Source of the DNA: an uncultured Candidatus Bathyarchaeia archaeon
GTDB taxonomy: Archaea; Thermoproteota; Bathyarchaeia; RBG-16-48-13; CAYPFQ01
DNA: 64,000 nucleotides
NCBI GenBank assembly: GCA_964473665.1
Contig: CAYYPV010000015.1
Location: 7,793 to 71,792 of the forward strand
Direction: 5' to 3'
Shown here: positions 6,453 through 57,463 of the stretch, piece after piece
Numbering within the stretch: the first letter of the stretch is position 1
Layout of the letters: every line of letters begins with the position of its first letter
Notes under the pieces: generated by a model
Seen by the model: only the letters and a program-made list of their open reading frames with translations
What the model was told of the DNA's origin: nothing
Databases searched by the model: none
Translations under genes and position numbers: made by a program

Positions 6453-6550
6453 AGCGAGGTGGGGTAGCAAGGTTTAACCCGCAGGGCTCATATGGACGAT
6501 GCCCGACCTGAGAAACCCTGAGATCGGAGGTTCAAATCCTTCCCTCGCTA
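6453..6550 (+). tRNA. Initiator tRNA-Met (CAU) with a 22-nt intron (about 6493-6514)
   Basis: A1:U72, three G:C pairs closing the anticodon stem (CAGGG/CCCUG), loop CUCAUA|A, T-loop UUCAAAU, discriminator A. Confidence 0.8.
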
Positions 6551-10539: not shown

Positions 10540-10825
10540 ACCCTACATCCCTCTTCTCGTTTTTGCGTCTACATTTTTCAGGAACTTCAACGACCTTCAG
10601 TAAAAGTTACATAACGGAACTTCAATCAGAAATGGAGCAAGTTAACATTTTATTCTCACCTTCGCCTAACTCATCAAGTTACATACCACTTGATAATCGT
10701 AAAGCCCACTGTAATTCAAAGTATCACCTGAGCAAACTGTTTAAGCTTTGTGAAGTAGGGGGGACGAAATGATTTCAAATGTATCTAATAGAAAGAGAGT
10801 ATTAATGCGGTAATCTTTTAAAAGA

Positions 10826-11275
10826 ATGAAAATTTATTTCACACGTATGGCTAAAGGATTTGTTGCAAAAGCTTCAATTTCGGTAAATGCTCCAATTGCT
10901 AGGGTATGGGAGTCCTTAGTTAATCCGGGAATAATTAAGCAGTATATGTTTGGAACGGATGTGGTTTCGGACTGGCAGGAGGGTGGCTCAATTGTTTGGA
11001 GGGGTGAGTGGCAGGGAAAGAAGTACGAGGATAAGGGTGTAATTCTACATCTTAAGCCTATGCGTTTGATTCAATATAGTCACTTCAGTCCGCTTTCGGG
11101 GCTTCCTGACAGGCCTGAGAATTATCACTCTGTAACAATTGTGCTGTCAGAAAAAGGAGATTCCACTCTTATTTCGTTATCTCAAGACAATAATAATACT
11201 GAAGAAGCAAAGAAGCATTCTGAACAAAATTGGGCACTAATGCTTGAGAGTTTAAAGGAGTTATTAGAAAAGTGA
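10826..11275 (+). CDS. SRPBCC/Aha1-domain protein (paralogous family to 2523-2936)
   Basis: Aha1-like fold motifs (IARVWESLVNP...GGSIVWRGEWQGK). Confidence 0.55.
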   Translation: MKIYFTRMAKGFVAKASISVNAPIARVWESLVNPGIIKQYMFGTDVVSDWQEGGSIVWRGEWQGKKYEDKGVILHLKPMRLIQYSHFSPLSGLPDRPENYHSVTIVLSEKGDSTLISLSQDNNNTEEAKKHSEQNWALMLESLKELLEK

Positions 11276-29132: not shown

Positions 29133-29237
29133 CGCCGGGTAGGGGATTCGAACCCCTGTGTCCCGAAGGGACAACCGTTCACTCAGATCCTACTGAGAAA
29201 TTCGAGACGGTCACCTTGGCCGCTTGGCTAACCCGGC
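29133..29237 (-). tRNA. tRNA-Ser (CGA) with a 21-nt intron at 37/38
   Basis: Acceptor GCCGGGU/ACCCGGC, discriminator G, anticodon stem ACCGU/ACGGU, loop CUCGAA|A, long variable arm UCCCUUCGGGA, T-loop UUCGAAU. Confidence 0.8.
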
Positions 29238-33434: not shown

Positions 33435-34976
33435 TTGAGCGAAGAAAGAGCTAAGAAGGCGCTGATAAGCGCAATAAGCGCTGGCTACCAGTTGGATAGA
33501 GATGCCCTTTCGTTCTTGGAAGTACTTCCTGAAACGTGTGAAACTGCGGATGTCGTTAAAAAAGCTGTTGAGAAGGCGAGTGGCCTCCCGCAAAAAACTA
33601 TGTTTATTTCCCGTGACTTATTAGAGGAGGCAGCGGAGGAAATTTTACCTGTAAAAGAAACCGAGAAACCGTGCATTGTTGAAGGGATGACTGGAAAAGA
33701 GATTTTTCACCCATATGCAAAGGAAATAAGTGCAGAAATGAAAATAATCGCAGATCCGACATCAATGAACTCAACCGGATCCATAGATGACTTTCTTCAA
33801 TGTTTCCGCGACCGTTTCAACAAAATTGAGAGGTTGTTAAGACAGAGGATGGATGTAAGGGGCGCCGTTTCAATTCAAGAAGCGTTGAATGCTAGACCAA
33901 ATACAGAAGTAAAAACAATCGGTCTTGTTTATGATAGACGTGAAAGAAAGAGGACAATCATGTTACAAATAGAGGACTTGGAAAATTCAGCGACTGTGAT
34001 GATTCCCCCATCAGCGTCACAGACCGTCTTCGAGAAAGCGCAGAAAATACTCCTCGATCAAGTAATTTGCGTTTGTGTAACTAGAAGTAGAGGCGACCTA
34101 TTAATTGCAAGCGACATAATACTACCAGACATACCTGAAAGAAAACCAATACATGCGAAGGAAAATGTCTGTGTAGCATTAACGTCAGACCTTCATATAG
34201 GAAGCCGCGTATTCCTAAAAGACGTACTTAATAGGTTCATTCTTTGGTTAAACGGCAAACTTGGTTCAACTAGAGATAGGGAATTAGCAGGGTTAGTAAA
34301 ATATGTCGTAATAGCTGGAGACCTAGTTGATGGAATAGGCGTCTATCCCGAGCAGGAAAAAGAGCTTGAAATTTCTGATATCTATGAACAGTACCGGATA
34401 GCGGCTCAGTACATAGAGCAAATTCCAGATTACATTGAAGTCGTGATAATTCCAGGAAATCATGACGCAACTAGGCAGGCCCTACCGCAGCCAGCCATAC
34501 CAAAAAAATATGCTGAACCGATCTACTCGGTAAGAGAAGTCACTATGCTAGGAGATCCAGCAACAGTGCAGCTCCATGGTGTAAACCTTCTACTCTATCA
34601 TGGAAGAAGCTTAGAGGATGTAATAGGATCAGTACCGCACTTAACCTATAACCAGCCTGAAAAAGCGATGGAACTCTTGTTAAAAGCACGTCACGTAGCA
34701 CCCGTGTACGGCAAAAGAACACCGATTGCACCAGAATCACATGACCAGCTAATAATCGAGGACTGCCCAGACATTTTCCATGTCGGCCATATTCATATTA
34801 ATGGCTATGAAAGCTATCGCGGAACCTTGTTAGTAAATTCAGGTGCTTGGCAGAAGACTACAGAATATCAAAGAAAAATGGGACTAACACCGACGCCTGG
34901 AAGAGTACCGATCGTAAATTTAGCAACAATGCAATTAACGGAAATGGATTTTATGGGTTATGAACTGTCTACGTAA
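33435..34976 (+). CDS. DNA polymerase II (PolD) small subunit DP1 (TTG start)
   Basis: N-terminal DP1 domain, OB region, Mre11-like phosphoesterase motifs (DLHIGS, GDLVDG, GNHD, GHIH). 513 aa. Confidence 0.85.
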   Translation: MSEERAKKALISAISAGYQLDRDALSFLEVLPETCETADVVKKAVEKASGLPQKTMFISRDLLEEAAEEILPVKETEKPCIVEGMTGKEIFHPYAKEISAEMKIIADPTSMNSTGSIDDFLQCFRDRFNKIERLLRQRMDVRGAVSIQEALNARPNTEVKTIGLVYDRRERKRTIMLQIEDLENSATVMIPPSASQTVFEKAQKILLDQVICVCVTRSRGDLLIASDIILPDIPERKPIHAKENVCVALTSDLHIGSRVFLKDVLNRFILWLNGKLGSTRDRELAGLVKYVVIAGDLVDGIGVYPEQEKELEISDIYEQYRIAAQYIEQIPDYIEVVIIPGNHDATRQALPQPAIPKKYAEPIYSVREVTMLGDPATVQLHGVNLLLYHGRSLEDVIGSVPHLTYNQPEKAMELLLKARHVAPVYGKRTPIAPESHDQLIIEDCPDIFHVGHIHINGYESYRGTLLVNSGAWQKTTEYQRKMGLTPTPGRVPIVNLATMQLTEMDFMGYELST

Positions 34977-35538
34977 GTCCATGTGCAATAAGTCGAGCTA
35001 TCCTAACAGGTTCAGGTACTTTAGAAATTACAGATAATCTGCGTGTTATTTTTTTAGCCCAACCAAGATTTGCGCCGATAACTTCGATGTAGATTGGCAG
35101 CTCACCTGATTTTGATGTAACCATGTATATTGGTCCAAGTTTTTCAATAATTGCCCAGCGACGCTCCCAATCTTTAAAATGATCCATTAATGCATTTTTG
35201 ACAGCCACATTATCTGGTTTCTTTCTAGAAACGATAATTACAGGTATACCGAGTTTTTTGTTTACCTTGACGGGATCTACTAAATTAAATCCAGCAAAAG
35301 AAACCCCACTAAGCATTACAACGTCGGCACTGATACCTCTCAACGTTCGAAGAAGCTTATCAGTAGCATCCAAACCATCAACAGTAATCGTACAAGAACG
35401 AAAATTTTCAAGTTGCATATCTTTCATCAAAATCACAATGAGTAAAGTCTTTCCATGCCGAAATCCCTCTGCATGAAAACTGCCCTCATCAACACCAGCA
35501 ACTCTAATTGGATTTAGTTTTGAGACAATTCGGCGCAT
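34969..35538 (-). CDS. UPF0215/DUF99-family protein (internal Met start assumed)
   Basis: AGVDEGSF...ITVDGLDAT...PVIIVSRK pattern. Ends overlap both polD-DP1 and orc1. Confidence 0.5.
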   Translation of the reverse strand: MRRIVSKLNPIRVAGVDEGSFHAEGFRHGKTLLIVILMKDMQLENFRSCTITVDGLDATDKLLRTLRGISADVVMLSGVSFAGFNLVDPVKVNKKLGIPVIIVSRKKPDNVAVKNALMDHFKDWERRWAIIEKLGPIYMVTSKSGELPIYIEVIGANLGWAKKITRRLSVISKVPEPVRIARLIAHGLT

Positions 35539-36751
35539 AATCCAGCAACCGTCCAACCCAACTATCATCAATGAAAATGTTCCTAATAACACTGCTAGAA
35601 ACGCCAATTGAAACTTTCTTTGTTCGCCCGTACCGTCCAAAACTAACGACTCGTGCGTTGAGAACACCCATGATATCAAGCTCGTTTATTAGTCCGCTTA
35701 CTCTACGTTGCGTTAAAACTTCGACGCCGAGCTGACCACAAAGTTCCTTGTAAACTTCAAAGACATCGCCGGTAATGGATCCATTTGAATTAGTTTTTTT
35801 TATTAAATATACACCAAAGAGAACAAGTTTGGAGTGTAATGGGAGAGTTTTTAGAACCTCCACAACTCTGTCTTGTTCAATTTTTTCCTGCGCTTGGCGT
35901 ACATGCTCTTCCGTTACATGTTTTTCACTATGTCGTTCAGCTAACTCACCAGCAACCCTCAGTAGATCTAAAGCACGTCTAGCGTCACCGTGTTCAGCTG
36001 CAGCTAAGGCGGAACATAAGTTAATCACCCCTGCTCCCAACGCGCCGTCTAGGAAGGCCAATTTTGATCTCTCTTGAAGTATGTCATGTAGTTCAGGTGC
36101 TGAGTATGGTCTAAATACAGCTTCTTCTTCGCTTAAGCTACTTAGAACTCGTGGGTCTAATAATTCTTTAAACCGTAGATTGTTGGAAATGCCGAGTATC
36201 GAAACTCTACCGAATTTAAGGTTTTCGTTAATTCTAGTTAGCTCGTAGAGTACAGCGTCTCCCTTGGCTTTTATTAACGCGTCTACTTCGTCAAGTACAG
36301 TGATTAATAGAATGCGTTTTGACTCTAATGCGCCCTTGAATCTGTCGAAGACTTCACCGACAGCTAGCCCTGTGAACGGTATGTGTAAACCGATTGATTC
36401 GCAAAGTTGAGAGAGAACGCGGTAATCTGTGCCGGCGATTCTACAATTTACGTAACAAACTTCAATGGACGCATGCAGTTCGCGACTTTTCCTAACCAGT
36501 TTATCTAGCACGAATTTGACGACGGCCGTTTTTCCTGTTCCAGTTTTACCGTAAATAAAAATGTTTGATGGCCTAGATCCATTTAGAACTGGCGCTAGAA
36601 TACTTCCTATCATTCGCGTCTGCTCGTCTCTATGTGGTAAATAAGCTGGAATAAAATCATGACGCAAGACATCTCGGTTCTTAAAAATCCTGGATTCTTG
36701 AAGAAAGCTTTCAAAAAGATTATCAAGTAAATCTGTTCGCTCTAATGTCAT
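35504..36751 (-). CDS. cdc6: Orc1/Cdc6 replication initiator
   Basis: AAA+ Walker A IYGKTGTGKTA, Walker B LDEVD, C-terminal winged helix. 415 aa. Confidence 0.9.
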   Translation of the reverse strand: MTLERTDLLDNLFESFLQESRIFKNRDVLRHDFIPAYLPHRDEQTRMIGSILAPVLNGSRPSNIFIYGKTGTGKTAVVKFVLDKLVRKSRELHASIEVCYVNCRIAGTDYRVLSQLCESIGLHIPFTGLAVGEVFDRFKGALESKRILLITVLDEVDALIKAKGDAVLYELTRINENLKFGRVSILGISNNLRFKELLDPRVLSSLSEEEAVFRPYSAPELHDILQERSKLAFLDGALGAGVINLCSALAAAEHGDARRALDLLRVAGELAERHSEKHVTEEHVRQAQEKIEQDRVVEVLKTLPLHSKLVLFGVYLIKKTNSNGSITGDVFEVYKELCGQLGVEVLTQRRVSGLINELDIMGVLNARVVSFGRYGRTKKVSIGVSSSVIRNIFIDDSWVGRLLDYAPNCLKTKSN

Positions 36752-36881
36752 GTTTAAATCTCTCTGTTTCTAGTTGTAGAACCACAATTTCAATTGGAAT
36801 ATAAAAGCCGCTTCTACAAAAATTCGAATCCTATACCATAAAAAAATAAACAGATCAAAAGTCAAAATAATGATCTAAAGA

Positions 36882-37202
36882 TCATCTTTCAATTTGTTTA
36901 ACCAGATCCGCGAAGATACCAAAGGCCTCATTAATGACTGCTAGCGTTTTATCTGGATTAAGTTTTAGTCCCGCTCTTAAAATCAGCGCAGTTGTTTCGT
37001 CATTAGGATAGTTGCGAACTCTACCGTTTTTCCCTATAAGATAGAAGTAAACCTGCCGCGGGTGTATCCCGACAGCCTTAGCCGTAGCTGTAGGACTGGA
37101 TTCACATTGCCGGTAAACTGCCTTAAATAGTTCCAGCCTTAATTTTTTTGGCATAAAGCTAGCAATCTTATCCAAGCGTTCTGTGTTCAATAGTACGCAC
37201 AC
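36882..37202 (-). CDS. Small putative HTH protein
   Basis: 106 aa, TATAKAVGIHPRQVYFYL helix-turn-helix-like segment. Confidence 0.35.
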   Translation of the reverse strand: MCVLLNTERLDKIASFMPKKLRLELFKAVYRQCESSPTATAKAVGIHPRQVYFYLIGKNGRVRNYPNDETTALILRAGLKLNPDKTLAVINEAFGIFADLVKQIER

Positions 37203-37211
37203 GCCCCATAA

Positions 37212-37230
37212 TTTCCAATGGAAGTCTCCT
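37212..37230 (-). promoter_or_regulatory. ORB-like origin recognition box 1
   Basis: atttccaatggaagtctcc resembles the mini-ORB core TTCCAGTGGAAAC. Confidence 0.45.
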
Positions 37231-37388
37231 TATATTGGGAATACTTACGAAATGAAATTCTTAGAATAGTCTCCGTTTGCTTTTAGCATAGAAATATAAT
37301 AACGATTATTATTGAAAATTTTAGAGCTTTTAGTTGATGTTTTTACTGACGAATGATATAGCGACCTGTTTTCCAAGTTAAGGAAAGA

Positions 37389-37415
37389 TCTCCAGTAGAA
37401 ACGCAGGTGTGGAGG
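37389..37415 (+). promoter_or_regulatory. ORB-like origin recognition box 2 with a downstream G-rich element
   Basis: tctccagtagaaacgcaggtgtggagg matches the archaeal ORB core CTCCAGTGGAAACG. Confidence 0.5.
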
Positions 37416-37563
37416 TTTCGTTTTTGTTTATTCTTGGTTATTAATAAACAATTTTAACGCTGTGAAAGTTGTGAAACCCAGGTTTAATTAGACTTTTTCC
37501 GAGGTATTTTTTATATTCGCCAGCCATTTTTTGGTTATTTTTTATTTTTAACGCAACCCCTAT

Positions 37564-37578
37564 GTTTCCACTGGAAAA
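37564..37578 (-). promoter_or_regulatory. ORB-like origin recognition box 3, adjacent to an AT-rich unwinding tract
   Basis: gtttccactggaaaa is the reverse complement of TTTTCCAGTGGAAAC. Flanked by A/T runs. Confidence 0.55.
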
Positions 37579-37754
37579 TAAGTTACCCCAGTCCTATTTT
37601 ACGCCTATTTTACAAAAAACTTAGTGAAGCTGTGAATTACATGGAAAGCTATAAATCTAGTTTATTTTTTAATTTTAAACTCAAAAAAAGATAATTCAAC
37701 GATTTTAAAAATTCTTATTCACCAAAAATCTCTTTAACTTGTGAATATGTAGAG

Positions 37755-39663: not shown

Positions 39664-40074
39664 GCTAATTCGCCTCTAAAAATTTACAGGATAATTTCTC
39701 TACTACAATAACTAAATAAATTATGGTATCATTTTATTTTATGAAGTTGCTTAATTTTACCGGGAGCTCATTAGGAGGGTCTTAGGGACCTTATTGAGCC
39801 TAGGACACGACCCTGTCCTGAAAGAACTTGTGATATCGCATAATATTACTTTGAACACTGGGATAGCCTGCTCTAGGCTATGCTAGGGCACTATCTTGTG
39901 ACCTAGTGTGATGTAACATTGACTGAGTGCGTAGTTATAGTATCACATGTGATTCTAGCTCTTCAATGCTAATGGTTTTTACATTTAGCGCTTTAAGCAA
40001 TGACAGAATATGAAAAAGAGATAAAAAAGAAGCGTTATTAAACTAAGATTCTATTTTTTGAACCATTTGAGGTT

Positions 40075-42399
40075 TTGATAAGTGAAATGAAGCGAGCGGC
40101 GGTTATACGCATTGCTGGGATAGTTCAGGGAGTAGGCTTCAGACCGTTTGTTTATAGAAGTGCCGTAAAAAATGATTTGCTCGGTTACGTGACAAATCTT
40201 GAAGACGCTACAGTAGAGATAACCGTTGAAGGCGAAGAAGGAAACATTAAACAATTCATTAAAGTACTTAAAAGTGAGGCGCCCCCCGTTGCAAACATTC
40301 AATCTATTAAAATCTCTTGGCAATCATATGAAAGATGTTTTAACAAGTTTGAAATAAAAAAAAGTAAGAAAAAACGTCTCTTCTACGGGTTCATGATACC
40401 GCCAGATATAGGTATATGCCATGAATGTATTGAAGATATTTTAAGTCCAGAGAAAAGACGCTGGAACTACTATCCATTCACATGTTGCGCCCATTGCGGG
40501 CCTAGGTTTACTGCAACATATGAATCGCCATATGATCGTGTTCGAACAAATATGCGTGATTTCCCACTATGCGAAAAATGTCAGCATGAGTATGAAGATC
40601 CGATAAATAGACGCTTTCACGCACAAGGTATATGTTGCCCAAATTGTGGGCCTCAAATTGCGCTCTACACTTCTAATGGCAAAAAAGTGAAAACAGGTAA
40701 TCCTCTCCAAGAAGCCGCCAAGCTCCTTGATGAAGGTTATATAGTCGCAATTAAGGGCATAGGTGGTGTTCATATTGCCGCAAAAACAAAAGATGATAGA
40801 ATTCTTGAAAAGATTCGAAAAAGGCGTAGAAGACCAAATCAACCGTTCGCTGTAATGTCACCCAACGTCGACATAATTAAAACATACGCAGCTGTTTCGC
40901 AGGAAGAAGAAAAACTATTAACCTCCTGGCAAAGACCCATTGTACTTCTAAGAAAATCCTCAAACTATTACTTATCTGAGCTGGTCTCTCCAGGATTAGA
41001 TACAATAGGTGTAATGTTACCTTATACTGGAATTCATCTCATTCTCTACCAATTTGTAAAAGAACCAGCCCTAATAATGACTAGCGGCAACGATCCCGGT
41101 CTACCAATGGTCATCACACATAAAGAAGCTTTCAAAACCCTAGGACGAATAGTCGATTATCTCCTCCTTCATAACCGCGAAATCGTAAACAGATGTGACG
41201 ACTCTGTACTTAGACTAATTAATGGAACACCGACATTCATACGACGCTCACGCGGCTATGTTCCGTCACCAATAAAAATACCCATTAATGATGAAATAAC
41301 CGCTATTTCAGTAGGCGCTGAGCTTAGAAATACTGGCGCAATTATTTACAAAGGAAACTGTTACTTAACTCAACATATAGGTGATATTGAAAACCTTGAG
41401 ACGCTTAACCATTTAGAGCAATCTTTAAGGCATTTATCTGTCCTTCTAGGAGTTAAGAATGATGTAGATGTTATCGCATGTGATTTACACCCAAATTACA
41501 TTACATCGCGTTTAGCGCAAGAGCTATCGCAGAAAAAAAACATACAACTAGTTCAAGTTCAACATCACCATGCTCATATTACTTCAGTAATGGCCGAAAA
41601 CAGAGTTCCACCAGACCAGTCAGTTATAGGAATAGCAATGGACGGCATCGGATATGGGCCTGATGGCACCGTTTGGGGAGGGGAAATTCTTGAAACCGCA
41701 TATCAAAGCTATGTTAGACGCGGCCACTTACAATTACAGCCCATGCCTGGAGGAGATCTATGCACGTATTACCCAGTAAGAATGTTCGTATCAACTCTAA
41801 GTTCAGTTCTGTCAGAGCAAGAAATTCGCGACATCACAAGAAGCCACGTAAAAAAGGGTCTTATACGCGGACAAAGAGAACTGTCAACAATTTTTAAACA
41901 GATTAAAAACTCAACAACAACAAAAACAACAAGTTCTGGTCGCTTATTAGATGCCATCGCTGCAGCTACGGGAATTTGCTATAAAAGAACATACGAAGGT
42001 GAACCTGCTATGCGGCTTGAAACTGCAGCAAACGAGGGAGACCCATATAAAATAAAGTTAAAACCTAAGATTTTACAGATAGATGGTAACTATGTGCTAG
42101 ACACCAGCCAACTCATATATGATATTATTACACTAGACCGCCAGAGGATTGTTGATATATGCGCAGCGGCCCAGCGGGCCTTCGCTATAGGTATGGCTGA
42201 AATGGCTATACGGGTAGCAAACGACCATGGAATACGCACAATAGCCATATCTGGAGGCGTTGGCGTTAACTTTAAAATCACACGTGATATTGAAGACTAC
42301 GTGCGGGGTCACATGTTGCATTGTATCCGTCACAGAATAGTGCCGCCAGGCGACGGCGGCTTAGCCTTAGGGCAAGCTATTTCAGCGTGTTTAATGTGA
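40075..42399 (+). CDS. hypF: [NiFe]-hydrogenase maturation carbamoyltransferase HypF (likely ATG start at 40087)
   Basis: Acylphosphatase domain (GIVQGVGFRPFVY), two CxxC...CxxC zinc-finger pairs, YrdC-like and Kae1-like domains. 774 aa. Confidence 0.85.
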   Translation: MISEMKRAAVIRIAGIVQGVGFRPFVYRSAVKNDLLGYVTNLEDATVEITVEGEEGNIKQFIKVLKSEAPPVANIQSIKISWQSYERCFNKFEIKKSKKKRLFYGFMIPPDIGICHECIEDILSPEKRRWNYYPFTCCAHCGPRFTATYESPYDRVRTNMRDFPLCEKCQHEYEDPINRRFHAQGICCPNCGPQIALYTSNGKKVKTGNPLQEAAKLLDEGYIVAIKGIGGVHIAAKTKDDRILEKIRKRRRRPNQPFAVMSPNVDIIKTYAAVSQEEEKLLTSWQRPIVLLRKSSNYYLSELVSPGLDTIGVMLPYTGIHLILYQFVKEPALIMTSGNDPGLPMVITHKEAFKTLGRIVDYLLLHNREIVNRCDDSVLRLINGTPTFIRRSRGYVPSPIKIPINDEITAISVGAELRNTGAIIYKGNCYLTQHIGDIENLETLNHLEQSLRHLSVLLGVKNDVDVIACDLHPNYITSRLAQELSQKKNIQLVQVQHHHAHITSVMAENRVPPDQSVIGIAMDGIGYGPDGTVWGGEILETAYQSYVRRGHLQLQPMPGGDLCTYYPVRMFVSTLSSVLSEQEIRDITRSHVKKGLIRGQRELSTIFKQIKNSTTTKTTSSGRLLDAIAAATGICYKRTYEGEPAMRLETAANEGDPYKIKLKPKILQIDGNYVLDTSQLIYDIITLDRQRIVDICAAAQRAFAIGMAEMAIRVANDHGIRTIAISGGVGVNFKITRDIEDYVRGHMLHCIRHRIVPPGDGGLALGQAISACLM

Positions 42400-43501
42400 T
42401 GTCACAATAATCATGAATTTTTAGAGGCATCCCAAGCTCAACAAGCTTAAGACCCCTCATGCACTCTCGATAAAATTAAGTGACTCCACAAAATAAAATG
42501 CCCATTTTAGTTTAAAATGAAAAAATTTACCTTGAAAGCAAATAGGTCTGTCTTCTTAGTATCGATAATGAGTATCCAATAAAGAATTGCTAGAAAGATA
42601 CTGGTGAAACTTCTAAAGTTGAAAGGACAAAATCATTTGATCAATAGTGATTAAAGATGGTCGTGATGAAGGATGGAAATGTAACAAGTCATTGGAAACA
42701 AAGGACCTTAATTTTTAAAATAGAAAGAGTTATAATTTATTACAAAATAAATTCAATTTTTACTAGGAAAAGAATGAACCGGAATATCTTCTAATAATAT
42801 CCAACCTGATAATAATTACTTTATCGCGAAATAATTTTGATCTCTTATTAATCTTCGCATATTACCATCTGAATTTATCCAATAAACTCTATTTTTTATA
42901 AAAAATACTATTTTATAAAAAGTTATGCGAATATTAATTATTCAGTTATTAAGCAAACGAATAATAATTATAAAGTATGGATTATATTTGGTCAAATATT
43001 ATACGGGAAAATTAAATTCTATTAAGAAGACCGGGGAAATTAGCTAATTTAATATTTAATTCTATTAAGAAGACTAAGGAAATCAGCTGATTTAATCAAG
43101 AGCTCATTAGTGGACATAAATTTTACTTAAATTTATACCCAGACTAAGTATGACAAATGCAGAACTTTCCTGAAGGGAAGTTTACACACTTGAAAAGTAG
43201 GAAAAACCCTTTGGACGAAAGAGCCAAAATAAAACTTTCAGGTAAAGGAATTAAAGAACTATGATTCGTTTTTTGGTTAGCTAATATTAATCTTAAAATT
43301 ATCCCTGATATTACATTGCACTTGTTAAAGAATAATAACGTAGCTTAGCCTTCGGTGAAACTATTTCAGCGTGTTTAATGTGATGTCACAATATGTCACG
43401 GATTTTTAGAGGCATCCTAAGCTCGACAAGCTTATTCAGCCCCCTTTCCTCAGGAATCAAAGAATTATAATTCTCCACTCGTTTAGCTAATAGTGCGCTT
43501 A

Positions 43502-43573
43502 AAAATCACACGTGATATTGAAGACTATAAGTGGAGTCACATGTTACATTGGATCTGTCACAGAATAGTGTAA
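43502..43573 (+). pseudogene. Fragment copying the C-terminal 23 codons of hypF (KITRDIEDY..HMLH.I.HRIV*)
   Basis: In-frame nucleotide similarity to hypF 42273-42345, ending in a stop. Confidence 0.5.
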
Positions 43574-45724
43574 TCGCTTAGCGCTGGGACAAGCTAATGT
43601 ACGTGTTATATGTGATGCTACATTATATCACGAGTTTTTCGACAAGTATACAGGCTTAAGCAAACTGAACGATTCTTTAGTATTAGTTTCCTATCTTCAT
43701 TTGCTACATTATCTAAGATTGGCTTGGTGCTTTGGCGTTATTCACCTGCTTAGTTCTCTATCTGTTTCACTACGGCCGTTAGTAACTAAGACATCTTAAA
43801 GAGCCTGCCACCTTTGGAAGGTATAAACCCACACCCTAAACCAGTCCGTCAAAGGCTAGAATGTCTAAAATGATAGGTATAGTTCAAGATGTTCCGATAT
43901 ACAACTATTTTCCTTATCTGCTTTCAGGTATCCATAGAATTTAACTATGTTCAATCTTTAGTTGCATAGACCTCTCCATACAGCCAGTAACTATAATGCT
44001 AAATAGGTTTAAGGGCTTTAACAATCTTCTAATGGAAACTAGTTCTGTCATTAAAAATTTTTCCGAAATGGTTTATGAGTATACTTGTCCGATCTTTTTG
44101 ACCGATGAAAGAACGGCCACTGTCTATCTTTGTTTGAGCAAAGCAGGATAAGATATGTTGTGAAGCTGCTTTTCTTTAACCTCATTAACTAATATGAATA
44201 TTTGCTTTATTCCTTCAGGGTTAAGCATTTAGTTCACTTTATTACTTTATTAGATTGTAAATGGGCAATGTTGACAATTGAGTGGATTGCGGCCATTTTT
44301 TTGACCATGTGCAATGGAAAATACGTCATCTATAACATGTAAAGTAATTAAAGAACCGTGATTCGCTTTTTCTTTACTGAACTCTAATAATAAATCATGA
44401 ATAACATTAAGGTTTACACGCAGAGTCCATATACAGCAGACTAGCAAATAGAATAGTGCCGACAGGCGATGACTACTTAGCCTTAGGGCAGTCATTTCAG
44501 TATGTTTAACGCGACATTATTAGACATAACAATTGTTTCTAAGGATAACTGTAATTTTAAGTACTGCTCCCGCCTTTAAATCTGTGATATCACATTATAT
44601 CACATGTTTACGACAGCCTTCTGGGCCTAATACGCTTCCTAAGATCCTTCTAGTGCCCCCTCGGTCAAATTAAGCAATTCTACAAAATAAATAGTCACAT
44701 ATTAGCCTAAAGATGGAAAGATATTGGATGGATTCATCGTGAAGCGATACGACTTTGTCTTCTTAGACTCTACAATAATGATTAATAAACGAATTGATAA
44801 GGCACTTTGGTGAAACTCCAGCGGAAGGAGGATTTCTTTTTATCAATTAGGAAAGCAATGAAGGGATTTTTATTGGAAAATGTAATGTGTCTTAGGGCAA
44901 AATGAATTTGATTTTGAAGAAATAAGATCATTTGTAAAAATGAAAAATAATGGAATTTTATGTATATATAAATAGATTACAAAACAAATGCTGGATTTAT
45001 TCAAAAATAAAAGCATGGACCTTCTTCAAATTGGTGAGTTATGGTGATTTATGCGAACAATTTTTAGATTTCTTATTAATTTTACATATTCGATGATTTG
45101 AATTTATTTAATAAACTCAATTTATGATAATTATTTTATAACTATTGGCCGTTTTCTATTTAGAAGATGTTATCAGTACTGATGGCATCAGTACCAGTTA
45201 TTCAATCATTAAGCAAAATGTGGTAATAGTACGAAAATAGAGTATATGATCCAAATACGTTGAGATATACCGAAATTCTAAGAATGCGGGCTGAAGAGAT
45301 TTAGGATAATCTGACTAAGATTTCAGGATGGATACTAATTTGATTTGTCTAAATTTATACTTAGACTAATTATAGTAAATGAATGATCATTGAAATGTAA
45401 CTTTATATTTGGAAAGCAAAAGAGAATTCATTTAGGAGAAAGGTTAGAGATAGAATTTTGGATAAAGGAATTAAAGAACTGCTATTCTCTTTTGTCTAGC
45501 TAATACCAATATTGAAACCAGTATAAAATTGAGATTTATGGTGTAGTAACATGCTAAATTGTACATACCACTTACAGAGCTGGCGGGCAATACCGTTAAG
45601 GCAAGTTATTTTAGTGATTTATTGTGATATCATAAAATATCACTGCTATTTTTCTTCGGGATTTTTATGGCGTATAATTTGAATTATATATTATTTCGGT
45701 CTAAATATGTGATGTCACATTATA

Positions 45725-46219
45725 TCACATGTTTTTCGACAACTTTCTAGGCTCAACAAGCTTCTTTAGGCTCTCCTCAAGCTCTTGCTGTAGGATCGTA
45801 GTTACTTTAAGATCTTCATTTGTGGCTTCTCCCGCTTCTATTCTTCCCCATATTTCATGGTATGCTTCAGCGTAACGTTTCAGATTATACGCAACTTCTG
45901 CATATTTATCAAACGTTGGATCCTCAAAAAAGCCTACATATCCTAGGAGAAAAAGAGTATAAATTGTTTGAATGACATTTCTACGAGCCTGTTTTAAAGT
46001 CCTCGTGAAGGCCCCGCGGCTTAAACCTTCCTTTTTTAGCCTTAATTTAACTTTTTCACGGTATTTTAGGCGTTTTTCTATATTTTCTTCAGATAAAATG
46101 TCAATTAACAAAGTTTCTAGCTGTATTTTTGTTAAATTACTATTTTCTAGAAGTATTTTTGTTATTGGGTCGTTTAAAATACGTTTTATCCAATTCTGAA
46201 CAGAATTTAAGTCGCTCAA
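45725..46219 (-). CDS. Hypothetical 164-aa protein whose 3' end lies inside a repeat unit; paralog remnants are present at the other repeat copies
   Basis: Intact ORF. C-terminal ...KKLVEPRKLSKNM is encoded by the repeat. Degenerate copies (..KLVELRMPLKI..) at 42400-42460 and 43380-43470 on the minus strand. Confidence 0.45.
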   Translation of the reverse strand: MSDLNSVQNWIKRILNDPITKILLENSNLTKIQLETLLIDILSEENIEKRLKYREKVKLRLKKEGLSRGAFTRTLKQARRNVIQTIYTLFLLGYVGFFEDPTFDKYAEVAYNLKRYAEAYHEIWGRIEAGEATNEDLKVTTILQQELEESLKKLVEPRKLSKNM

Positions 46220-47506
46220 ACTTCACAACTCCTACTTGCTTATTGAGGATACATTTTTGTATACACAACTAGATATTAAAATCGGTGGGCTTTCCATTTA
46301 AATATCCGTCAAAAGTTATCTGAGATATCACAGGGTATTACCTTTTTTCAAATAAAACTTAGCATGCAGTTTTTTGGATGAATAATAACATATTTACATT
46401 AGAATTGCTGTTTGTGCAGTGTACCGTGATTTTATTGAATTGACCAAAAATATTGTGGTTGTTTTCCGACGAATGTAACTTAGTACAAACATTTCTTTCC
46501 TCTTAGGGGAGATTGACTCAATTCTTTCAGTAAAGTTCTATAATAATCCATTTCTGAAGCAAAGATTGTATTAAATTCATTAAAAATGGTATTATAAATT
46601 ATACTGCCTGGATGTTATCAGTGGATTATAGTGTTTCTAATCTCTAACTATGTATTACGTGCTGAGTTCTTATGAAGAAAATGATAAGAATTTTTTTATC
46701 CAAAAAAGAGATGGCCCAAAATATATGAATTGGGAAGGAAGGTAGCAAAATATTAGTAATAAATACATATCATTGATGCAATGCCTGGGATTAAGACGAT
46801 ATTTTCAGTCAGGCATTAATTTGCTTGCGTGAAAAAAGGTATAGTCAGTGCAAAAGCATGATAGTACATGCATTTTTATAGCAAGTGCATGTCAATTTCA
46901 TATCATTATGCAATAAAACGAAGCATATTATTATAGGTACTAAGCGATAAAAGCTGATTTCTAACTGATTATTTTATTAAATATAGGACTCAACTGTTGA
47001 CATTATTCCACTCATAGATCCATATGAAACTCAAGTCAAACCGTTAGGAGTGCATAAAGAAATTTCAAGAGAAATAAGGATATCTTAAAGTGAGTCAGAT
47101 ACTGCAGGATGAGCTTGAGTAGGGCCTAAGGAAGCTTGTTGAACATAGGACATTGTCGAAAAACATGTGATAAATTGTGATATCACATATTTTTAAGGCT
47201 GTAACTTTGTTTAAACTTATGCATTCTTCACCCTTAGATATATGACCCGATCAACTTGATTAGGCAGAACTAGGCCTGAAATATGATATGCTTGGCCTAA
47301 TTCGCTAAGTCTTGAACACAAAATTACGCCTACCAAAATTGTGAAATAATTGGTATACCGCATTCATTAGTTCAAAATTCAAATATAATTAGGCATTGCT
47401 GGAGAACTGAATATAAACAGTTTAGTCCACTAACCTTAAAACTTAGTTAATTGACAAAAGGTATAGACTTTTAGTAATTATCTAAGCGCTGATGTGGGAA
47501 ATAGTT

Positions 47507-48588: not shown

Positions 48589-51500
48589 TTGCAAATAATA
48601 GCGACAGAAAATTACAAGCAATACTTTATGCAGATGGAAAAACAACTCGAAAAACTCTACGCTGTTGCTAAGCAAGCTAGAATTAAAGGACTTGATCCAA
48701 ACCTTGAACCAGAGCCCCGCATTGCAAAAGACCTCGCAGAACGTGTTGAGGGACTCGTCGGCCCAAAAGGAATAGCAGAAAGGATACAAGAATTAAGTGG
48801 AACAATGTCTCAAGAGATGATGAGCTTCAAAATTGCGCAAGAAACCATGTACGGAAAATTCGGTCACATGGATGAAAATCAAGCAGCGGAGCAAGCAATA
48901 CGAACTTCACTAGCCATTTTAACGGAAGGCATAACCGCAGCACCACTACAGGGGATTTCAAGCGTAAAAATAAAGCAAAATTTCGATCGAACCAAATATT
49001 TGGCCATATACTTTGCTGGACCAATTCGTTCAGCTGGCGGTACAGAACAAGCATTGATTCTAGTTATAAGCGACTTCGTCCGGCGAATATTAGGTCTTGA
49101 TAAATACAAACCAACAGAATATGAGATCAAACGCTTCATCGAAGAGATCAGAATTTACGAAAGGGATGTATCACGCTTTCAGTATCATGAATCTGACGGA
49201 TTCCTCGAAAATGTGTTACATAATTTACCAATCGAAGTGACTGGAGTAGGCACTGACCCTATTGAAGTTGTATCATTCAGAAACCTTCCAAGAATTGAGA
49301 CAAATAATGTTAGAGGAGGGGCCCTTCGGGTTGTTAACGATGGTATCGTAGGCAGATCAAGAAAAGTTATGAAAATAATAGACGAACTTGGAATTGAAGG
49401 ATGGGATTGGTTAAGAATAGCACGTGAATTAAAAGAAGAAGAGGCAGCCGAAGTAGCAGAATTCATGTTTATGGAAGATGTAGTTGCTGGAAGATCAGTT
49501 TTCTCCTTTCCATCAAGAAGCGGTGGCTTCAGGCTTCGTTACGGGCGCTCAAGAAATACTGGCCTAGCAGCTATCGGTGTACATCCTGCCACAATGGCCG
49601 TCCTACAAAATTTCCTCGCAATAGGCACACAATTACGCATTGAAAAACCCGGAAAAGCAGGTGTGGTAACTCCAGTAGATACAATCGAGCCTCCAATCGT
49701 TAGGTTAAAAGACGGCTCAGTTATCAGAATTGAATCAATTGAGGAAGCAGAGAAACTTAGAGACAGCATTGATAAAATTCTCTTTGTCGGCGATTTGTTA
49801 ATAGCGTTTGGGGAGTTTCTCGAAAATAATAAACCCTTAGCACCATCGGGATTTTCAGAAGAATGGTGGATTGAATTTCTAAATACGATCATAGCAAAAA
49901 ACTATGATAACTCTGTTGAGGAAGTAGCCGCTGCAATAGGTATACCATTAGCACGATTACAATCTTTACTAAAAAATTTCCTCACAATAAGACCAACTGC
50001 TGAAGAAGCTGTAACCATGACCCAAAAATTGAAAATTCCATTACATCCGCACTATACTTACTTCTGGCACGCAATATCTCTTGACGACTTCTTAAAACTT
50101 AGGAAAGACTTCCAAGAAGCAGAACAACTAACAGAAAACGGGATGATTACAAAGATCGAATTATCACTAAAACCAGACATTAAAAAAATTCTTGATTCAC
50201 TCTGCATACCTCACATAGTTAAGAATAAAAAAATAATACTGATTGAAGAAGCGCCTGCAGTTGCTTTCAGCCTAGGCTTAGTTAACCCTGAAGAAAAAAT
50301 CAAAACAGCAAAAACAACTTTGGAAGCGATTAAAGAACTAACAGGGTTCACTATTATAGAAAAAGCACCCACATCCATAGGTACAAGAATGGGACGCCCA
50401 GAAAAAGCAAAGCAAAGAGCAATGACACCCCCAGTCCACGTTTTATTTCCAGTAAGTCTCGCTGGCGGTTCACAAAGAAACATTCTTGAAGCTATTAAAA
50501 AAGGCTTCATCGAGGTTGAAATTGCCCGAAGAAGATGTCCAAACTGTAGTGAAGTAACCTACAAAATTAAATGCCCGCTTTGCGGCGCTGATACAAAGCG
50601 TGAACAGATATGCCCCATCTGCAATAGAACTCTAAAGGAAGAAACATGCCCAATATGCAAAGTTCGCACAGTATTCTTTGAAAAAAAAACAATAAACATT
50701 AAGGAATTATTCAATGAAGCTTGCAAAAAACTAAACATAACTCCACCAGAGCTCGTAAAGGGAGTAAAAGGTCTTACAAGCGAAACAAAAATACCTGAAC
50801 AGATTGAAAAAGGGCTTCTTCGAGCAAAAAATAACGTCCAAGTATTCAAAGATGGAACAATTCGATTTGATGCGACAAATGTACCATTAACGCATTTCAA
50901 ACCAACAGAAATAAACATCTCTATAGAAAAACTTCATGAACTAGGTTACGATTGTGATATGTATGGAGATTCGCTACAAACTCCAAATCAAATTTGCGAA
51001 TTAAAAGTTCAAGATATAATTATTCCAGAAAAATCTGCAAAATATCTAATCGATATCTCACACTTCATCGATGAAGCACTACAAAAAATTTACAATCTTC
51101 CTCCATATTATAACGCAACAAGAGAAGAAGATTTGCTTGGACATTTAATTCTAGGTTTAGCACCTCACACCTCAGCAGGAGTTATAGGACGGATCATTGG
51201 TTTCACAAAGGCAAACGCTTGCTACGCCCATCCACTTTGGCATGCAGCAAAAAGAAGAGACTGTGATGGAGATGAAGACGCGATAATTTTAGTTCTAGAT
51301 GCTCTAATCAACTTCTCTAAGGAATACCTGCCATCGCAAATCGGCGGAATGATGGACGCACCTTTAATAATAACGCCGATCATTAACCCATTTGAAGTAG
51401 ACGATGAGGCTCACAATATAGACGCTGCATCTAAATATCCAATAGACTTTTACGAAAAAACTCTGCTTGCAGCGGATCCAAAAATTGCCGCGCAAAATAT

Positions 51501-52020
51501 TGACTCAATAGCTCATAGACTAGGCACTCCCGAACAGTATGAAGGTCTACACTATACACATGCAACTACAGACATTAATGCTGGCAATCTTGAGAGTGTC
51601 TATAAGAAACTAGGCGCGATGACTGAGAAAATGGAAGCACAACTTGAACTTGCAGAAAAAATAAGCGCGGTTGACGTTAAGGAAGTAGCCAAAAGAGTTC
51701 TAACAACGCACTTCATTAGAGACATATCGGGCAATCTCAAAGCATTTGCAGGACAGAAATTCCGGTGCATGAAGTGTAATACAAAATTCAGAAGAATACC
51801 AATGGTAGGCAAATGTCCAAGGTGCGGCGGAAAAATCTCTCTAACGGTTCATAGAGGTGGTATTGAGAAGTACCTAGAAGCAGCCGGCAATCTAGCAAAA
51901 AAATACAAAATTGAGGAATACTACATTGACAGAATTTCATTAATAGGAGACGAAATTGAAATGCTTTTTAAATCATCTATTGAAAAGAAAAAGCAACCAA
52001 GTCTAACTGAGTTTATCTAG
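48589..52020 (+). CDS. DNA polymerase II (PolD) large subunit DP2 (start possibly an internal ATG near 48628)
   Basis: DP2 N-terminal pattern (...AKQARIKGLDPNLEPE...AERVEGLVGP), central catalytic region, C-terminal zinc fingers (CPNC...CPLC...CPIC...CPIC; CMKCN...CPRCG). 1143 aa, no intein. Confidence 0.9.
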   Translation: MQIIATENYKQYFMQMEKQLEKLYAVAKQARIKGLDPNLEPEPRIAKDLAERVEGLVGPKGIAERIQELSGTMSQEMMSFKIAQETMYGKFGHMDENQAAEQAIRTSLAILTEGITAAPLQGISSVKIKQNFDRTKYLAIYFAGPIRSAGGTEQALILVISDFVRRILGLDKYKPTEYEIKRFIEEIRIYERDVSRFQYHESDGFLENVLHNLPIEVTGVGTDPIEVVSFRNLPRIETNNVRGGALRVVNDGIVGRSRKVMKIIDELGIEGWDWLRIARELKEEEAAEVAEFMFMEDVVAGRSVFSFPSRSGGFRLRYGRSRNTGLAAIGVHPATMAVLQNFLAIGTQLRIEKPGKAGVVTPVDTIEPPIVRLKDGSVIRIESIEEAEKLRDSIDKILFVGDLLIAFGEFLENNKPLAPSGFSEEWWIEFLNTIIAKNYDNSVEEVAAAIGIPLARLQSLLKNFLTIRPTAEEAVTMTQKLKIPLHPHYTYFWHAISLDDFLKLRKDFQEAEQLTENGMITKIELSLKPDIKKILDSLCIPHIVKNKKIILIEEAPAVAFSLGLVNPEEKIKTAKTTLEAIKELTGFTIIEKAPTSIGTRMGRPEKAKQRAMTPPVHVLFPVSLAGGSQRNILEAIKKGFIEVEIARRRCPNCSEVTYKIKCPLCGADTKREQICPICNRTLKEETCPICKVRTVFFEKKTINIKELFNEACKKLNITPPELVKGVKGLTSETKIPEQIEKGLLRAKNNVQVFKDGTIRFDATNVPLTHFKPTEINISIEKLHELGYDCDMYGDSLQTPNQICELKVQDIIIPEKSAKYLIDISHFIDEALQKIYNLPPYYNATREEDLLGHLILGLAPHTSAGVIGRIIGFTKANACYAHPLWHAAKRRDCDGDEDAIILVLDALINFSKEYLPSQIGGMMDAPLIITPIINPFEVDDEAHNIDAASKYPIDFYEKTLLAADPKIAAQNIDSIAHRLGTPEQYEGLHYTHATTDINAGNLESVYKKLGAMTEKMEAQLELAEKISAVDVKEVAKRVLTTHFIRDISGNLKAFAGQKFRCMKCNTKFRRIPMVGKCPRCGGKISLTVHRGGIEKYLEAAGNLAKKYKIEEYYIDRISLIGDEIEMLFKSSIEKKKQPSLTEFI

Positions 52021-56137: not shown

Positions 56138-57463
56138 CTATTTACCCTCGACAAGTATGCGAAATTCACGGGCCGTCAGCTGAAGCCCACCAGTAAAAGA
56201 ATCATACGTTGCTCTACCAGCAACTATAATCTCTTTACCTAAAATATCTTTACTTGCATTTTTAATTGGAGCTGTATCATCACCTGTCTTGGAAACAAGT
56301 TCCAATGCCTTTTCTGCAGACATACCGAGCATACTTTCAGCTTGTTGGCCGTAAAAAACAGCAACAATATTACCTGAATCATCTTTAAGGGTTGTTTTAA
56401 GGATTATACGGTGTACTGGTGTCTTTACAGATCCACATCGCTCGCAAAATGTGCCTTCAGGCTTTTGTATAATTTTCTTAAAACAAAATGGACAAGCTAA
56501 ATAAATTGAAGCTTTTTCTGCTAGATTTGCAATTTTAGCTTGAACATAAACGACATCGCCATTTTTTAGCTCAGCAATCTTAGCAATCTTCAATCCCACT
56601 TCAGTAACATAGGAAGGTTTTGCAGTAAAAACCGAGACCGCAACATTTCCGTTGATATGAATCTCAACTTCATCGCTCATTCCTTTTTTTGTTCTCGCGC
56701 CCATTATTTGTAAGGTATCGCCCGCCTTTACATCTTTAATCACCTCAACCTTATCGTTCCAAAAAACAGCTGTAACATTTCCAGTATCATCAACTAATCT
56801 CACTCGAGAAACTCGCCCCACATCTTTTTCTCTTTGGAAAATAGAAACTGGAAATGCCTGTGCTACTGAGGCAGTAATATTCACATGCTTCTCATTCACT
56901 TTCAATTCATTAATCTTCTTAAAAAACTCATTAACTTCTGGAAACTCATCTACTTTAAGTCCAGGTGGATTAACAATAACTTCGCCGCGCATACCCAAAT
57001 GAAGCTCAGGTTTACCGTCTAATCCTTCGCGCACATAACCGTGAAGAATTTTAACCACTTGCCCTTGTATTATTTGTTTTTGGCTTACAAGTTCAACTTT
57101 TTCATTCCAAAAAATAACATTCAAAGTCCCTGTTCTATCAGCCACGAGCACCTTAAGCATTTTCCCAACAGTTTTATCAGACTTTAGAAATGTTTGAGAA
57201 GGATAAATACAGATTACCCGACCGGTAATTGACATATCATTAACACCAAGAACTAAATCGCGAACGCTGATTTCGGTCTTAACAACCCCTTTCTCAGTTA
57301 GATTAACACCTAACTCAGAAGCAACAATGTAAGCGGCACCGTCATCGGTAAGTAGCCCACCAACATCTTTCTTTTTCTGTGTAATCATTTTTTTAACGTC
57401 GTCCCGCCTCAAATCTGATCGTTCAGCAAGAATACGTACAACAATTTGATCCAGCGTAAGCAA
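56138..57463 (-). CDS. Replication protein A (multi-OB-fold ssDNA-binding protein with zinc ribbon)
   Basis: Three OB-fold repeats plus CPFCFKK...CERCG zinc finger. 441 aa. Confidence 0.75.
   Translation of the reverse strand: MLTLDQIVVRILAERSDLRRDDVKKMITQKKKDVGGLLTDDGAAYIVASELGVNLTEKGVVKTEISVRDLVLGVNDMSITGRVICIYPSQTFLKSDKTVGKMLKVLVADRTGTLNVIFWNEKVELVSQKQIIQGQVVKILHGYVREGLDGKPELHLGMRGEVIVNPPGLKVDEFPEVNEFFKKINELKVNEKHVNITASVAQAFPVSIFQREKDVGRVSRVRLVDDTGNVTAVFWNDKVEVIKDVKAGDTLQIMGARTKKGMSDEVEIHINGNVAVSVFTAKPSYVTEVGLKIAKIAELKNGDVVYVQAKIANLAEKASIYLACPFCFKKIIQKPEGTFCERCGSVKTPVHRIILKTTLKDDSGNIVAVFYGQQAESMLGMSAEKALELVSKTGDDTAPIKNASKDILGKEIIVAGRATYDSFTGGLQLTAREFRILVEGK

Follow-up and report, generated by a model that had tools for sequence, protein, structure and literature searches.

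A native junction between two convergent genes, hypF (carbamoyltransferase) and an uncharacterised gene here called ORF164, has been multiplied within a gene-poor stretch of the genome of an uncultured Bathyarchaeia archaeon. The window analysed comprises 64,000 nt of contig CAYYPV010000015.1 (GCA_964473665.1; positions 7,793 to 71,792, forward strand). In this window hypF and the Elf1 gene are separated by about 5 kb of mostly dead DNA, which is made up of degenerate junction copies, AT-rich DNA, an intact ORF164 and the remains of nadE, the gene for NAD synthetase. The rest of the window is densely coding; in 42400-47490 the sole open reading frame (ORF) longer than about 80 amino acids is ORF164, and the GC content there is 24-33% versus about 40% in the flanks. 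Eight copies of the gene-end junction (J0 to J7) are present at the locus. We tentatively read the region as a decayed insertion-and-recombination scar, in which one or a few Campbell-type insertions of non-local, junction-bearing DNA would have been followed by the spread of copies of copies, gene conversion and decay. Archaeal genomes are compact, so 5 kb with a single intact gene is unusual, and relatives that retain the empty site show how such a stretch arose. A native convergent junction centred on a conserved palindrome would have served as a recombination substrate and gained non-local DNA together with dead copies of itself, and the locus also lost its neighbouring NAD synthetase gene.

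A multiplied junction of two gene ends

The repeated module was defined by aligning all copies with the junctions of two relatives, L214 and L085 (L-numbers label the compared loci and contigs in related archaea or other assemblies), and by pairwise alignments tested against shuffled sequences. Its left part is the last ~130 nt of hypF, with an edge at about 42270; a palindromic motif follows, and the final ~100-125 nt of ORF164 make up the right part. The module measures ~230-330 nt, and its left and right boundaries are the same wherever a copy is complete. J0, which forms the live end of hypF, J1, J2, J3 and J4/5, which forms the live end of ORF164, are direct copies; two further copies are inverted, the truncated J6 and the complete J7, the latter located upstream of hypF (Table 1). 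In a window-wide blastn comparison, 42359-42449 matches 43343-43434 (89%, E 1e-27), 42270-42425 matches 43498-43642 (74% overall and 88% over the first 73 nt, E 4e-21), 42334-42394 matches 44450-44509 (84%, E 9e-11) and 45703-45813 matches 47192-47082 in inverted orientation (83%, E 2e-26), and the 64 kb yielded no repeat copy outside 39.7-47.2 kb. The ORF164 3' end is repeated together with the motif at 44577-44638 and 43608-43659, while tblastn detects pseudo-fragments of the HypF C-terminus at 43493-43570 (residues 731-756, then a stop), 43345-43380 and 44441-44494.

A preliminary description, made from the sequence alone, had listed repeats of the hypF 3' end and its junction, and every one of them was recovered, far beyond chance and confined to the locus. 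The blocks that it placed about 2.2 kb apart likewise exist and are longer than had been claimed (42334-43298 versus 44450-45517, colinear at an offset of 2.1-2.26 kb). Its picture of a 5-kb desert made of decayed tandem copies is accurate as far as the presence of the copies goes; recognisable copies total only ~1.6 kb of the 5.1 kb, and the remainder consists of three filler blocks (A1, A2 and X), the intact ORF164 and the nadE pseudogene. Remnants on the minus strand had been ascribed to a paralogue of ORF164, but they derive from the 3' end of ORF164 itself and give no evidence for a separate paralogue. One form of these remnants (type II) was considered as an import from another lineage, an origin that was rejected, none of nine orthologues being a closer match. 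Two features had been overlooked, namely the nadE pseudogene and a complete inverted copy at 39733-~39970.

The internal structure of the copies reveals that they are not equivalent. Between AGAATAGTG and GCTTAGC, J1, J2 and J7 have 5 nt where hypF has 16, which amounts to one common, frame-breaking deletion of 11 nt; these three were therefore copied from an already dead copy and were not successive functional gene ends. The ancestral spacer between the hypF-side and ORF164-side palindromes is kept in J3 and J4/5, and the two palindromes are fused in J0, which is without the spacer, as well as in J1, J2 and J7, a form that is native in three relatives (L087, L217, L218). Identity to the hypF end is 79% in J1 and J2, 63% in J3 and 64% in J4/5, whose hypF end is among the two most decayed; J3, J4/5 and J7 together span 63-68%. 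J0 and J1 are 89-92% identical over ~90 nt and differ strongly in their left parts, a combination that indicates recombination or gene conversion between copies and, judged from these alignments, points to a recent event. The J0 segment 42430-42500 also matches 44621-44691 and, inverted, 39730-39805. J6 and J7 swap out native bases instead of duplicating a target: J6 takes the place of ~25 nt of nadE, and its hypF-side part is not significant.

At the centre of the module stands the 12-nt palindrome TGTGATRYCACA. With at most one mismatch allowed, 18 strand matches are found, spread over 10 sites that all lie within 39829-47187; chance would give 0.66. It forms part of a wider pattern, a 22-nt motif composed of the palindrome GTGATRTCAC (TGTGATRTCACA) and an ATCAC half-site 0-4 nt away, which all ORF164 orthologues examined, including those with as little as 53% protein identity, conserve at their 3' end. 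The motif overlaps the ORF164 stop codon, as palindrome b of J4/J5 does, or falls within the last codons, and in relatives that keep the spacer the hypF stop lies in a similar motif. A 22-mer in J3 (44583-44604) is identical to the motif of L090, and the orientation of the motif relative to ORF164 is reversed in the window versus the relatives. Neither viral contigs nor other hypF loci, 1.36 Mb from archaea and bacteria, contain it. A conserved motif at the 3' end of an uncharacterised gene family is perhaps the more interesting lead and may merit separate study.

Empty sites in relatives and the origin of the filler

In eight related loci (L085, L214, L089, L090, L087, L215, L217 and L218) hypF and the ORF164 orthologue stand tail to tail, 7-90 nt apart and with no insert between them. 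In four of these (L085, L214, L089, L090), which represent three archaea, an intact nadE follows and then Elf1-PcrB-PolD; nadE is not at this position in L217 and L218. The ancestral state is thus hypF converging on ORF164 across a few to 90 nt, with nadE and Elf1 coming next in the closest relatives, both in the direction of hypF. Since the convergence is native in eight relatives, ORF164 is a host gene and not the cargo of an element. Relatives with hypF and ORF164 are almost all Bathyarchaeia-type metagenome-assembled genomes. One of them, L087, has beside its ORF164 orthologue a hypF that looks degenerate (10553-10892), with a 46-residue HypF_C fragment called and signs of an internal deletion and a stop; that lineage may have lost hypF and kept the junction motif.

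The closest relative, L214, lies on a 1.25-Mb contig that is ~84-86% identical to the window and syntenic with 32868-56329. Three changes are specific to the lineage of the window. An insert of 3.3 kb (42400-45701) lies between the stops of hypF and ORF164, where L214 has a spacer of 77 nt; an inverted junction copy (47077-47245) has been inserted in nadE; and a second inverted copy (39733-~40003) replaces ~40-108 nt upstream of hypF. Between the window and L214, identity is 67.7% at the third codon positions of hypF and 65-68% for the nadE pseudogene and the ORF164-nadE spacer, which translates into a total neutral divergence of ~0.4-0.47 substitutions per site. Against this yardstick the 79% identity of J1 and J2 fits an origin after the split. 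J3, J4/5 and J7, and A1 compared with A2, have diverged further than neutral decay in place would easily achieve after the split; this excess mildly favours donors that were already diverged, but the segments are short and the alignments uncertain.

The filler amounts to ~2.1 kb and has no match elsewhere in the 64-kb window or in the relatives. A1 and A2 are homologues (z=21). Their colinear patches are 74-90% identical and their global identity is 55%, a divergence too great for a recent in-place duplication. A 43-nt tandem duplicate (84% identical) within A1 (43008-43093) resembles an iteron, although without a known counterpart, and A2 has one related copy. When aligned locally with the body and the upstream region of ORF164, A1, A2 and X score as shuffled sequence does (z<1). 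A hidden Markov model (HMM) of the ORF164 family, applied to translations in all six frames, detects the intact gene and a remnant at 47051-47161 and nothing in the filler or elsewhere, and duplication of the whole of ORF164 in tandem was discarded on these grounds. Alignments of the filler and of the P-arm, a repeat described below, with the hypF body or its upstream region are not significant, so that an origin as decayed hypF upstream sequence was rejected as well. The possibility that the filler represents remnants of the relatives' variable genes was dismissed, given that tblastx against their loci matches only the hypF-end copies. The open frames of X and one frame of A1 give no significant Pfam or PHROG match, and a protein search with the concatenated X frames gave no match at E<=1, although this search was weak and missed an 81-residue ORF present in the collection. 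Uniform decay cannot explain why the filler resembles no local gene while the adjacent hypF-end copies are still 63-79% identical. This lack of local similarity argues that the filler is non-local DNA. Plain tandem segmental duplication followed by decay, which the preliminary description had put forward as the alternative, does not account for the region, as the DNA between the copies is unrelated to the ancestral locus: A1, A2 and X are dissimilar to ORF164 and its upstream region, to hypF and to nadE.

The four internal direct copies all have the P-arm in front of them, a conserved flank of ~60 nt that is not derived from hypF and that ends where the module begins.

The arrangement is reproduced in four independent metagenome assemblies, so an assembly artefact can be ruled out. 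Contigs with the same architecture (L003/L212, L001+L004, L088+L216, L211 and L002) come from independent metagenomes, and the identity is 99.6-99.9% (JGI Ga0187769 and Ga0187770; ENA ERZ27251294 and ERZ27251255; Logan SRR7004203). Contigs of the independent assemblies stop at shared positions (38025, 42374-42405, 45419-45430 and 47867), with no alternative arrangement seen; coverage, hairpins in the DNA or minor variants may be the cause. The breaks at 42374-42405 and 45430 prompted the idea of structural variation in the population, which was abandoned because a contig of the same sample (L216) keeps the arrangement up to 45419. L003 shows 19 differences from the window, 15 of them within the 5.1-kb desert and the other 4 within 4.75 kb of flanks. 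Among strains of 99.7% identity the density of single-nucleotide polymorphisms (SNPs) is ~3 per kb in the desert versus ~0.8 per kb in the flanks, an excess consistent with relaxed constraint. The segment 44206-44896 differs from both L003 and L001 at 12 positions in ~700 nt, including 3 single-base indels, compared with 0.2-0.4% elsewhere, and may be a recombined haplotype segment.

Table 1. Genes, junction copies, flanks and filler at the hypF/ORF164 locus. Positions refer to the window unless a locus label is given; z is from shuffle-tested alignments.
Feature	Position	Strand	Description	Evidence
hypF	40075-42399	+	Carbamoyltransferase gene, intact	All HypF Pfam domains present
ORF164	45725-46219	-	Intact, conserved, predicted all-alpha; native convergent neighbour of hypF	Synteny in 8 relatives
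nadE pseudogene	46513-47447	+	NAD synthetase; many stops and frameshifts, interrupted by J6	tblastn with nadE of L085, L089, L090
J0, left half	42270-42399	+	Last ~130 nt of hypF	Live gene end
J0, right half	42395-42500	+	Palindrome over hypF stop, fused to decayed ORF164 3'-end remnant (type II)	
J1	43299-43434	+	Dead; hypF end with 11-nt deletion, fused palindrome 43379-43390, ~40 nt of ORF164 end	z=24.8
J2	43498-43705	+	Dead; hypF residues 731-756 and stop, 11-nt deletion, palindrome 43611-43622, ORF164-end remnant	tblastn E 2e-5
J3	44395-44691	+	Ancestral form; hypF end (residues 751-768), relative-like spacer, palindrome 44583-44594, type II ORF164-end remnant	z=23.7
J4/J5	45518-45734	+	Decayed hypF end 45518-45620, palindrome a 45623-45634, native-like spacer, palindrome b 45708-45719	z=11.6
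J6	47077-47245	-	Inverted, truncated; last ~126 nt of ORF164, palindrome 47176-47187, part of spacer	Inserted in nadE
J7	39733-39970 (end approximate)	-	Inverted, complete; type II ORF164 end, fused palindrome 39829-39840, hypF end with 11-nt deletion	z=18.6
P-arm copy 1	43239-43298	+	AAAGGAATTAAAGAAC...TTAGCTAATA; abuts left edge of J1	Repeat families D2, D5; blast 80-86%
P-arm copy 1b	43445-43497	+	Degenerate	Repeat family D2, 64%
P-arm copy 3	44336-44394	+		Repeat families D2, D5, 75-82%; 86% by blast
P-arm copy 4	45456-45517	+		80% to copy 1
A1	42501-43238		AT-rich filler, 27% GC	Colinear with A2
X	43706-44335		Filler, 36% GC	Dissimilar to A1/A2 and ancestral locus
A2	44692-45455		AT-rich filler, 28% GC	Homologous to A1
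22-nt motif	45702-45734; L085 10491; L214 10491; L090 2578; L215 595; L087 10505; L086 10490; L217 ~4536; L218 ~4799			

Proposed insertion and recombination, and competing origins

According to the favoured reading, non-local DNA, perhaps extrachromosomal, would have arrived in one or a few pieces (the A type and the X type), each bearing a junction copy of ~230-330 nt and a P-arm. These pieces would have recombined into the junction in Campbell fashion, by means of a site-specific recombinase or homologous recombination, duplicating the junction and leaving hypF and ORF164 intact. Recombination among the direct repeats may then have spread the already dead copies J1, J2 and J7; it may also have produced the palindrome fusions seen in several copies and the homogenisation of J0 and J1. 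Templated repair would have placed the inverted copies J6 and J7 nearby, one of them inside nadE, and the region would subsequently have decayed with an AT bias. The low GC content of the filler (27-28% versus ~40% in the flanking genes) was counted in support of an insertion scar. Part of the original proposal of repeated integration at the hypF 3' end survives in this scenario, in that the insert is lineage-specific, the relatives have empty sites, hypF is intact, the module boundaries are sharp and four copies bear a P-arm. The notion that each copy is a displaced gene end does not survive, given the shared deletion in J1, J2 and J7 and the inverted, ectopic positions of J6 and J7. The convergent junction and ORF164 had been attributed to the element; they are the native target. 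No intact element of the kind envisaged between hypF and Elf1 is found in the relatives, all eight of which show the empty junction.

A number of results weigh against this scar reading. Pfam scans of ~50 ORFs, covering most ORFs of at least 110 amino acids in the window, and Pfam and PHROG scans of the open frames of the insert (the stop-free frames of X and one frame of A1) detected no integrase, transposase or other element gene or fragment thereof, in agreement with the earlier statement that no integrase remains in the window. Neither the A or X filler nor the P-arm, the hypF end or the motif was found to have a relative, free or intact, in viral contigs, phages or plasmids: a P-arm 16-mer has only chance matches in viral contigs, with no extended similarity, a hypF-end 19-mer, a composite A1/A2 pattern and the 22-nt motif have none there, and the 3.3-kb insert matches nothing in phage and plasmid collections. 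The units are only 0.2-1.1 kb long and non-coding, and the att sites of crenarchaeal elements, reported at 29-69 bp, are several times shorter than the repeated core (PMC6563490). Integration does not predict the inverted ectopic copies. A duplicated hypF 3' end was seen in none of 75 other hypF loci, and the idea that hypF is a general integration hotspot was given up on that count. Lastly, the live 3' end of hypF is no more diverged from L214 than the remaining gene. Nucleotide identity to the L214 orthologue is 83.5% for the gene and 85.4% for its last 130 nt, which leaves no discontinuity at 42270. The hypF of the window has a 1-nt deletion near its end (42380-42399) with respect to L085, L214 and L089, giving a shorter, altered protein tail of ..AISACLM versus ..AISGVFNVTS. 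All dead hypF-end copies share this deletion state, and together with the undiverged live end it implies that any donor carried the junction of the window's own lineage.

The last of these points also belongs to the strongest competitor, a rearrangement hotspot without any element, which we consider somewhat unlikely. A palindrome between convergent genes, near a likely origin of replication, would stall forks or cause breaks; template switching and unequal crossing-over would then duplicate the junction, and filler and inverted copies would be drawn from other templates. Replication-based repair, by template switching or microhomology-mediated break-induced replication, copies nearby sequence ectopically, often in inverted orientation and with the loss of a few native bases. 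The locus resembles such events in its inverted ectopic copies, each of which replaces a short native stretch as is typical of templated break repair, and in the clustering of events at the palindrome. Every copy is centred on the palindrome, which is fused in four of them, and the common 11-nt deletion documents copy-of-copy spread. The lineage's own 1-nt deletion in all copies, the lack of a divergence jump at 42270 and the failure of the scans to find an integrase or element gene are all expected from a purely local process. A distance of 2-6 kb separates the locus from Cdc6/Orc1 and an intergenic region of 1 kb. However, a hotspot leaves the ~2.1 kb of filler, for which there is no local source in the window or the relatives, unexplained. 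The uniform boundary between P-arm and module in four units looks like one founder structure that spread, not like independent breaks, and the same palindrome has not led to expansion in the eight relatives.

At the opposite pole stands pure serial site-specific integration, in which each element supplies a new functional hypF 3' end, displaces the previous one and is later deleted to a stub. The direct copies, the intact hypF, the empty site in relatives and a P-arm/core/ORF164-end structure resembling an attP would suit it, as would the gradient of decay, with J1 and J2 next to hypF less decayed than the distal J3 and J4/5; A1 and A2, related but strongly diverged, look like two related elements. 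Such a history nonetheless fails on the 11-nt deletion, which would need three origins, on the unexplained inverted ectopic copies and on the absence of any integrase remnant or element gene from the scans. Independent deletions are also unlikely to have left the same colinear stub of ~0.8 kb in A1 and A2, and ORF164 is host DNA and not cargo. Pure serial integration is therefore improbable. It is very unlikely, too, that the ~1-kb units of P-arm, junction copy and A-type filler represent an undescribed kind of integrase-less, non-autonomous mobile DNA of Bathyarchaeia-like archaea, which would target the 22-nt element at the ORF164 stop and be mobilised in trans by a recombinase or by ORF164, with the inverted motif and the fusions as its footprints.

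The least probable of the readings considered is a functional non-coding locus, be it an array of binding sites for a regulator (ORF164, or a neighbouring HTH-CBS or TrmB-like protein), a group of genes for small RNAs or an accessory replication origin whose AT-rich unwinding region has repeated palindromes on its flanks. Conservation of the 22-nt motif down to 53% protein identity, sometimes inside coding sequence, argues that the DNA element itself is under selection; ten motif sites lie within 7.4 kb, and the AT-rich blocks are near the Cdc6/Orc1 and PolD genes. Yet the expansion is missing in all eight relatives, the copies bear random deletions and stops, polymorphism exceeds that of the flanks, no Rfam family is found in the region and A1 and A2 are only 55% identical overall. 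An identity as an archaeal replication origin was rejected as well: all relatives lack the expansion, and cdc6 (35504-36751) has its own 1-kb intergenic region. The region evolves close to neutrally and has no detectable function.

Several known systems offer partial parallels. At the fda 3' end of Streptococcus thermophilus, att-flanked remnants without a recombinase (cis-mobilisable elements, CIMEs) persist in tandem and can accumulate. Accretion of remnants at a gene 3' end is what the locus shares with them; the CIMEs are bacterial, and their integrase and integrative and conjugative element (ICE) partners are known, unlike any partner of the archaeal locus. Repetitive extragenic palindromes and bacterial interspersed mosaic elements (REP/BIME) are palindromic elements just after the stop codons of convergent genes, a position that the palindromes of the locus share. 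The motif is locus-specific, with no other copies in the 64-kb window or in 1.36 Mb of hypF loci, and, in comparison with miniature inverted-repeat transposable elements (MITEs) and REPs, all junction copies seen in the 64 kb lie within 39.7-47.2 kb. A diversity-generating retroelement was excluded, as no reverse transcriptase occurs among the scanned ORFs and the copies differ by deletions and mixed substitutions. Archaeal mobile elements do integrate in the 3'-distal parts of protein-coding genes, and the tandem re-use of such sites is documented in Thaumarchaeota (PMC6563490). Arrays of tyrosine-recombinase integrated mobile genetic elements (iMGEs) described there resemble the locus in the insertion at a gene 3' end, the intact gene, the end repeats, the empty site and the tandem units (PMC6563490). 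They differ in that the locus has no integrase or element genes, its units of 0.2-1.1 kb are non-coding and its core of 230-330 nt extends over two gene ends, compared with 29-69 bp, and it includes copies of dead copies and two inverted ectopic copies. Casposons at the ef-2 3' end likewise re-use an archaeal gene end as a target and form tandem elements (PMC6563490, PMC4779613). Unlike the locus, they have terminal inverted repeats, short target-site duplications, Cas1 and PolB; the Pfam scans found no Cas1 or PolB, the repeats are direct copies of 230-330 nt, and a casposon was rejected. As in an array of mobile elements, direct repeats of a gene end flank an insert next to an intact hypF, and eight relatives have the empty site; an integrase, recognisable cargo and a free element were not found, and J1, J2 and J7, with their shared 11-nt deletion, were not successive functional ends. 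Because the locus is without integrase or element genes and its core is longer and covers two gene ends, it is classed as a variant of the insertion-scar kind and not as an established member of the integrated-element arrays. It provides a worked example for annotating integration scars in uncultured archaea, in which duplicated gene ends alone are no proof of serial integration. The wider importance is limited, as nothing suggests a current function.

Genes of the locus and its surroundings

The ORF164 family gives 327 matches at E<=0.01, the best 120 of which are 49-99% identical, some of them on chromosomal contigs of Mb scale. Among 34 sequences 31 alignment columns are invariant, and the protein is predicted to be all-alpha (predicted local distance difference test score, pLDDT, 76). 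It has no sequence match in Pfam, NCBIfam or the Protein Data Bank (PDB), and no Foldseek match to PDB structures at E<=0.001. In Bathyarchaeia-type genomes the family is syntenic with Elf1-PcrB-PolD. The nadE pseudogene is 68% identical to the nadE of L214 at the nucleotide level (GC 0.31 versus 0.42).

Upstream of hypF, the intergenic region towards the gene for an HTH-CBS regulator varies among close relatives: L085 has a 106-residue ORF there (12956-13276) that is missing in L214 and in the window, and in the window the region is the site of J7. Further upstream, 33435-37754 forms a cluster of replication genes with the PolD small subunit (33435-34976), endonuclease dU (34969-35679) and, on the minus strand, Cdc6/Orc1 (35504-36751). 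A gene-free stretch of 1 kb (36752-37754) adjoins Cdc6/Orc1 and is probably a replication origin; the repeat scar lies 2-10 kb from it. The PolD large subunit (48589-52020) and RPA (56138-57463) are encoded nearby.

Elsewhere in the window, an ORF of 1240 codons on the minus strand (6817-10539) matches no Pfam family at E<=1e-5, and Rfam identifies an archaeal signal recognition particle (SRP) RNA. Four tRNA matches of 98-114 nt (2280-2393, 3192-3292, 6453-6550 and 29133-29237) are found by Rfam and not by ARAGORN; they are probably intron-containing archaeal tRNAs.

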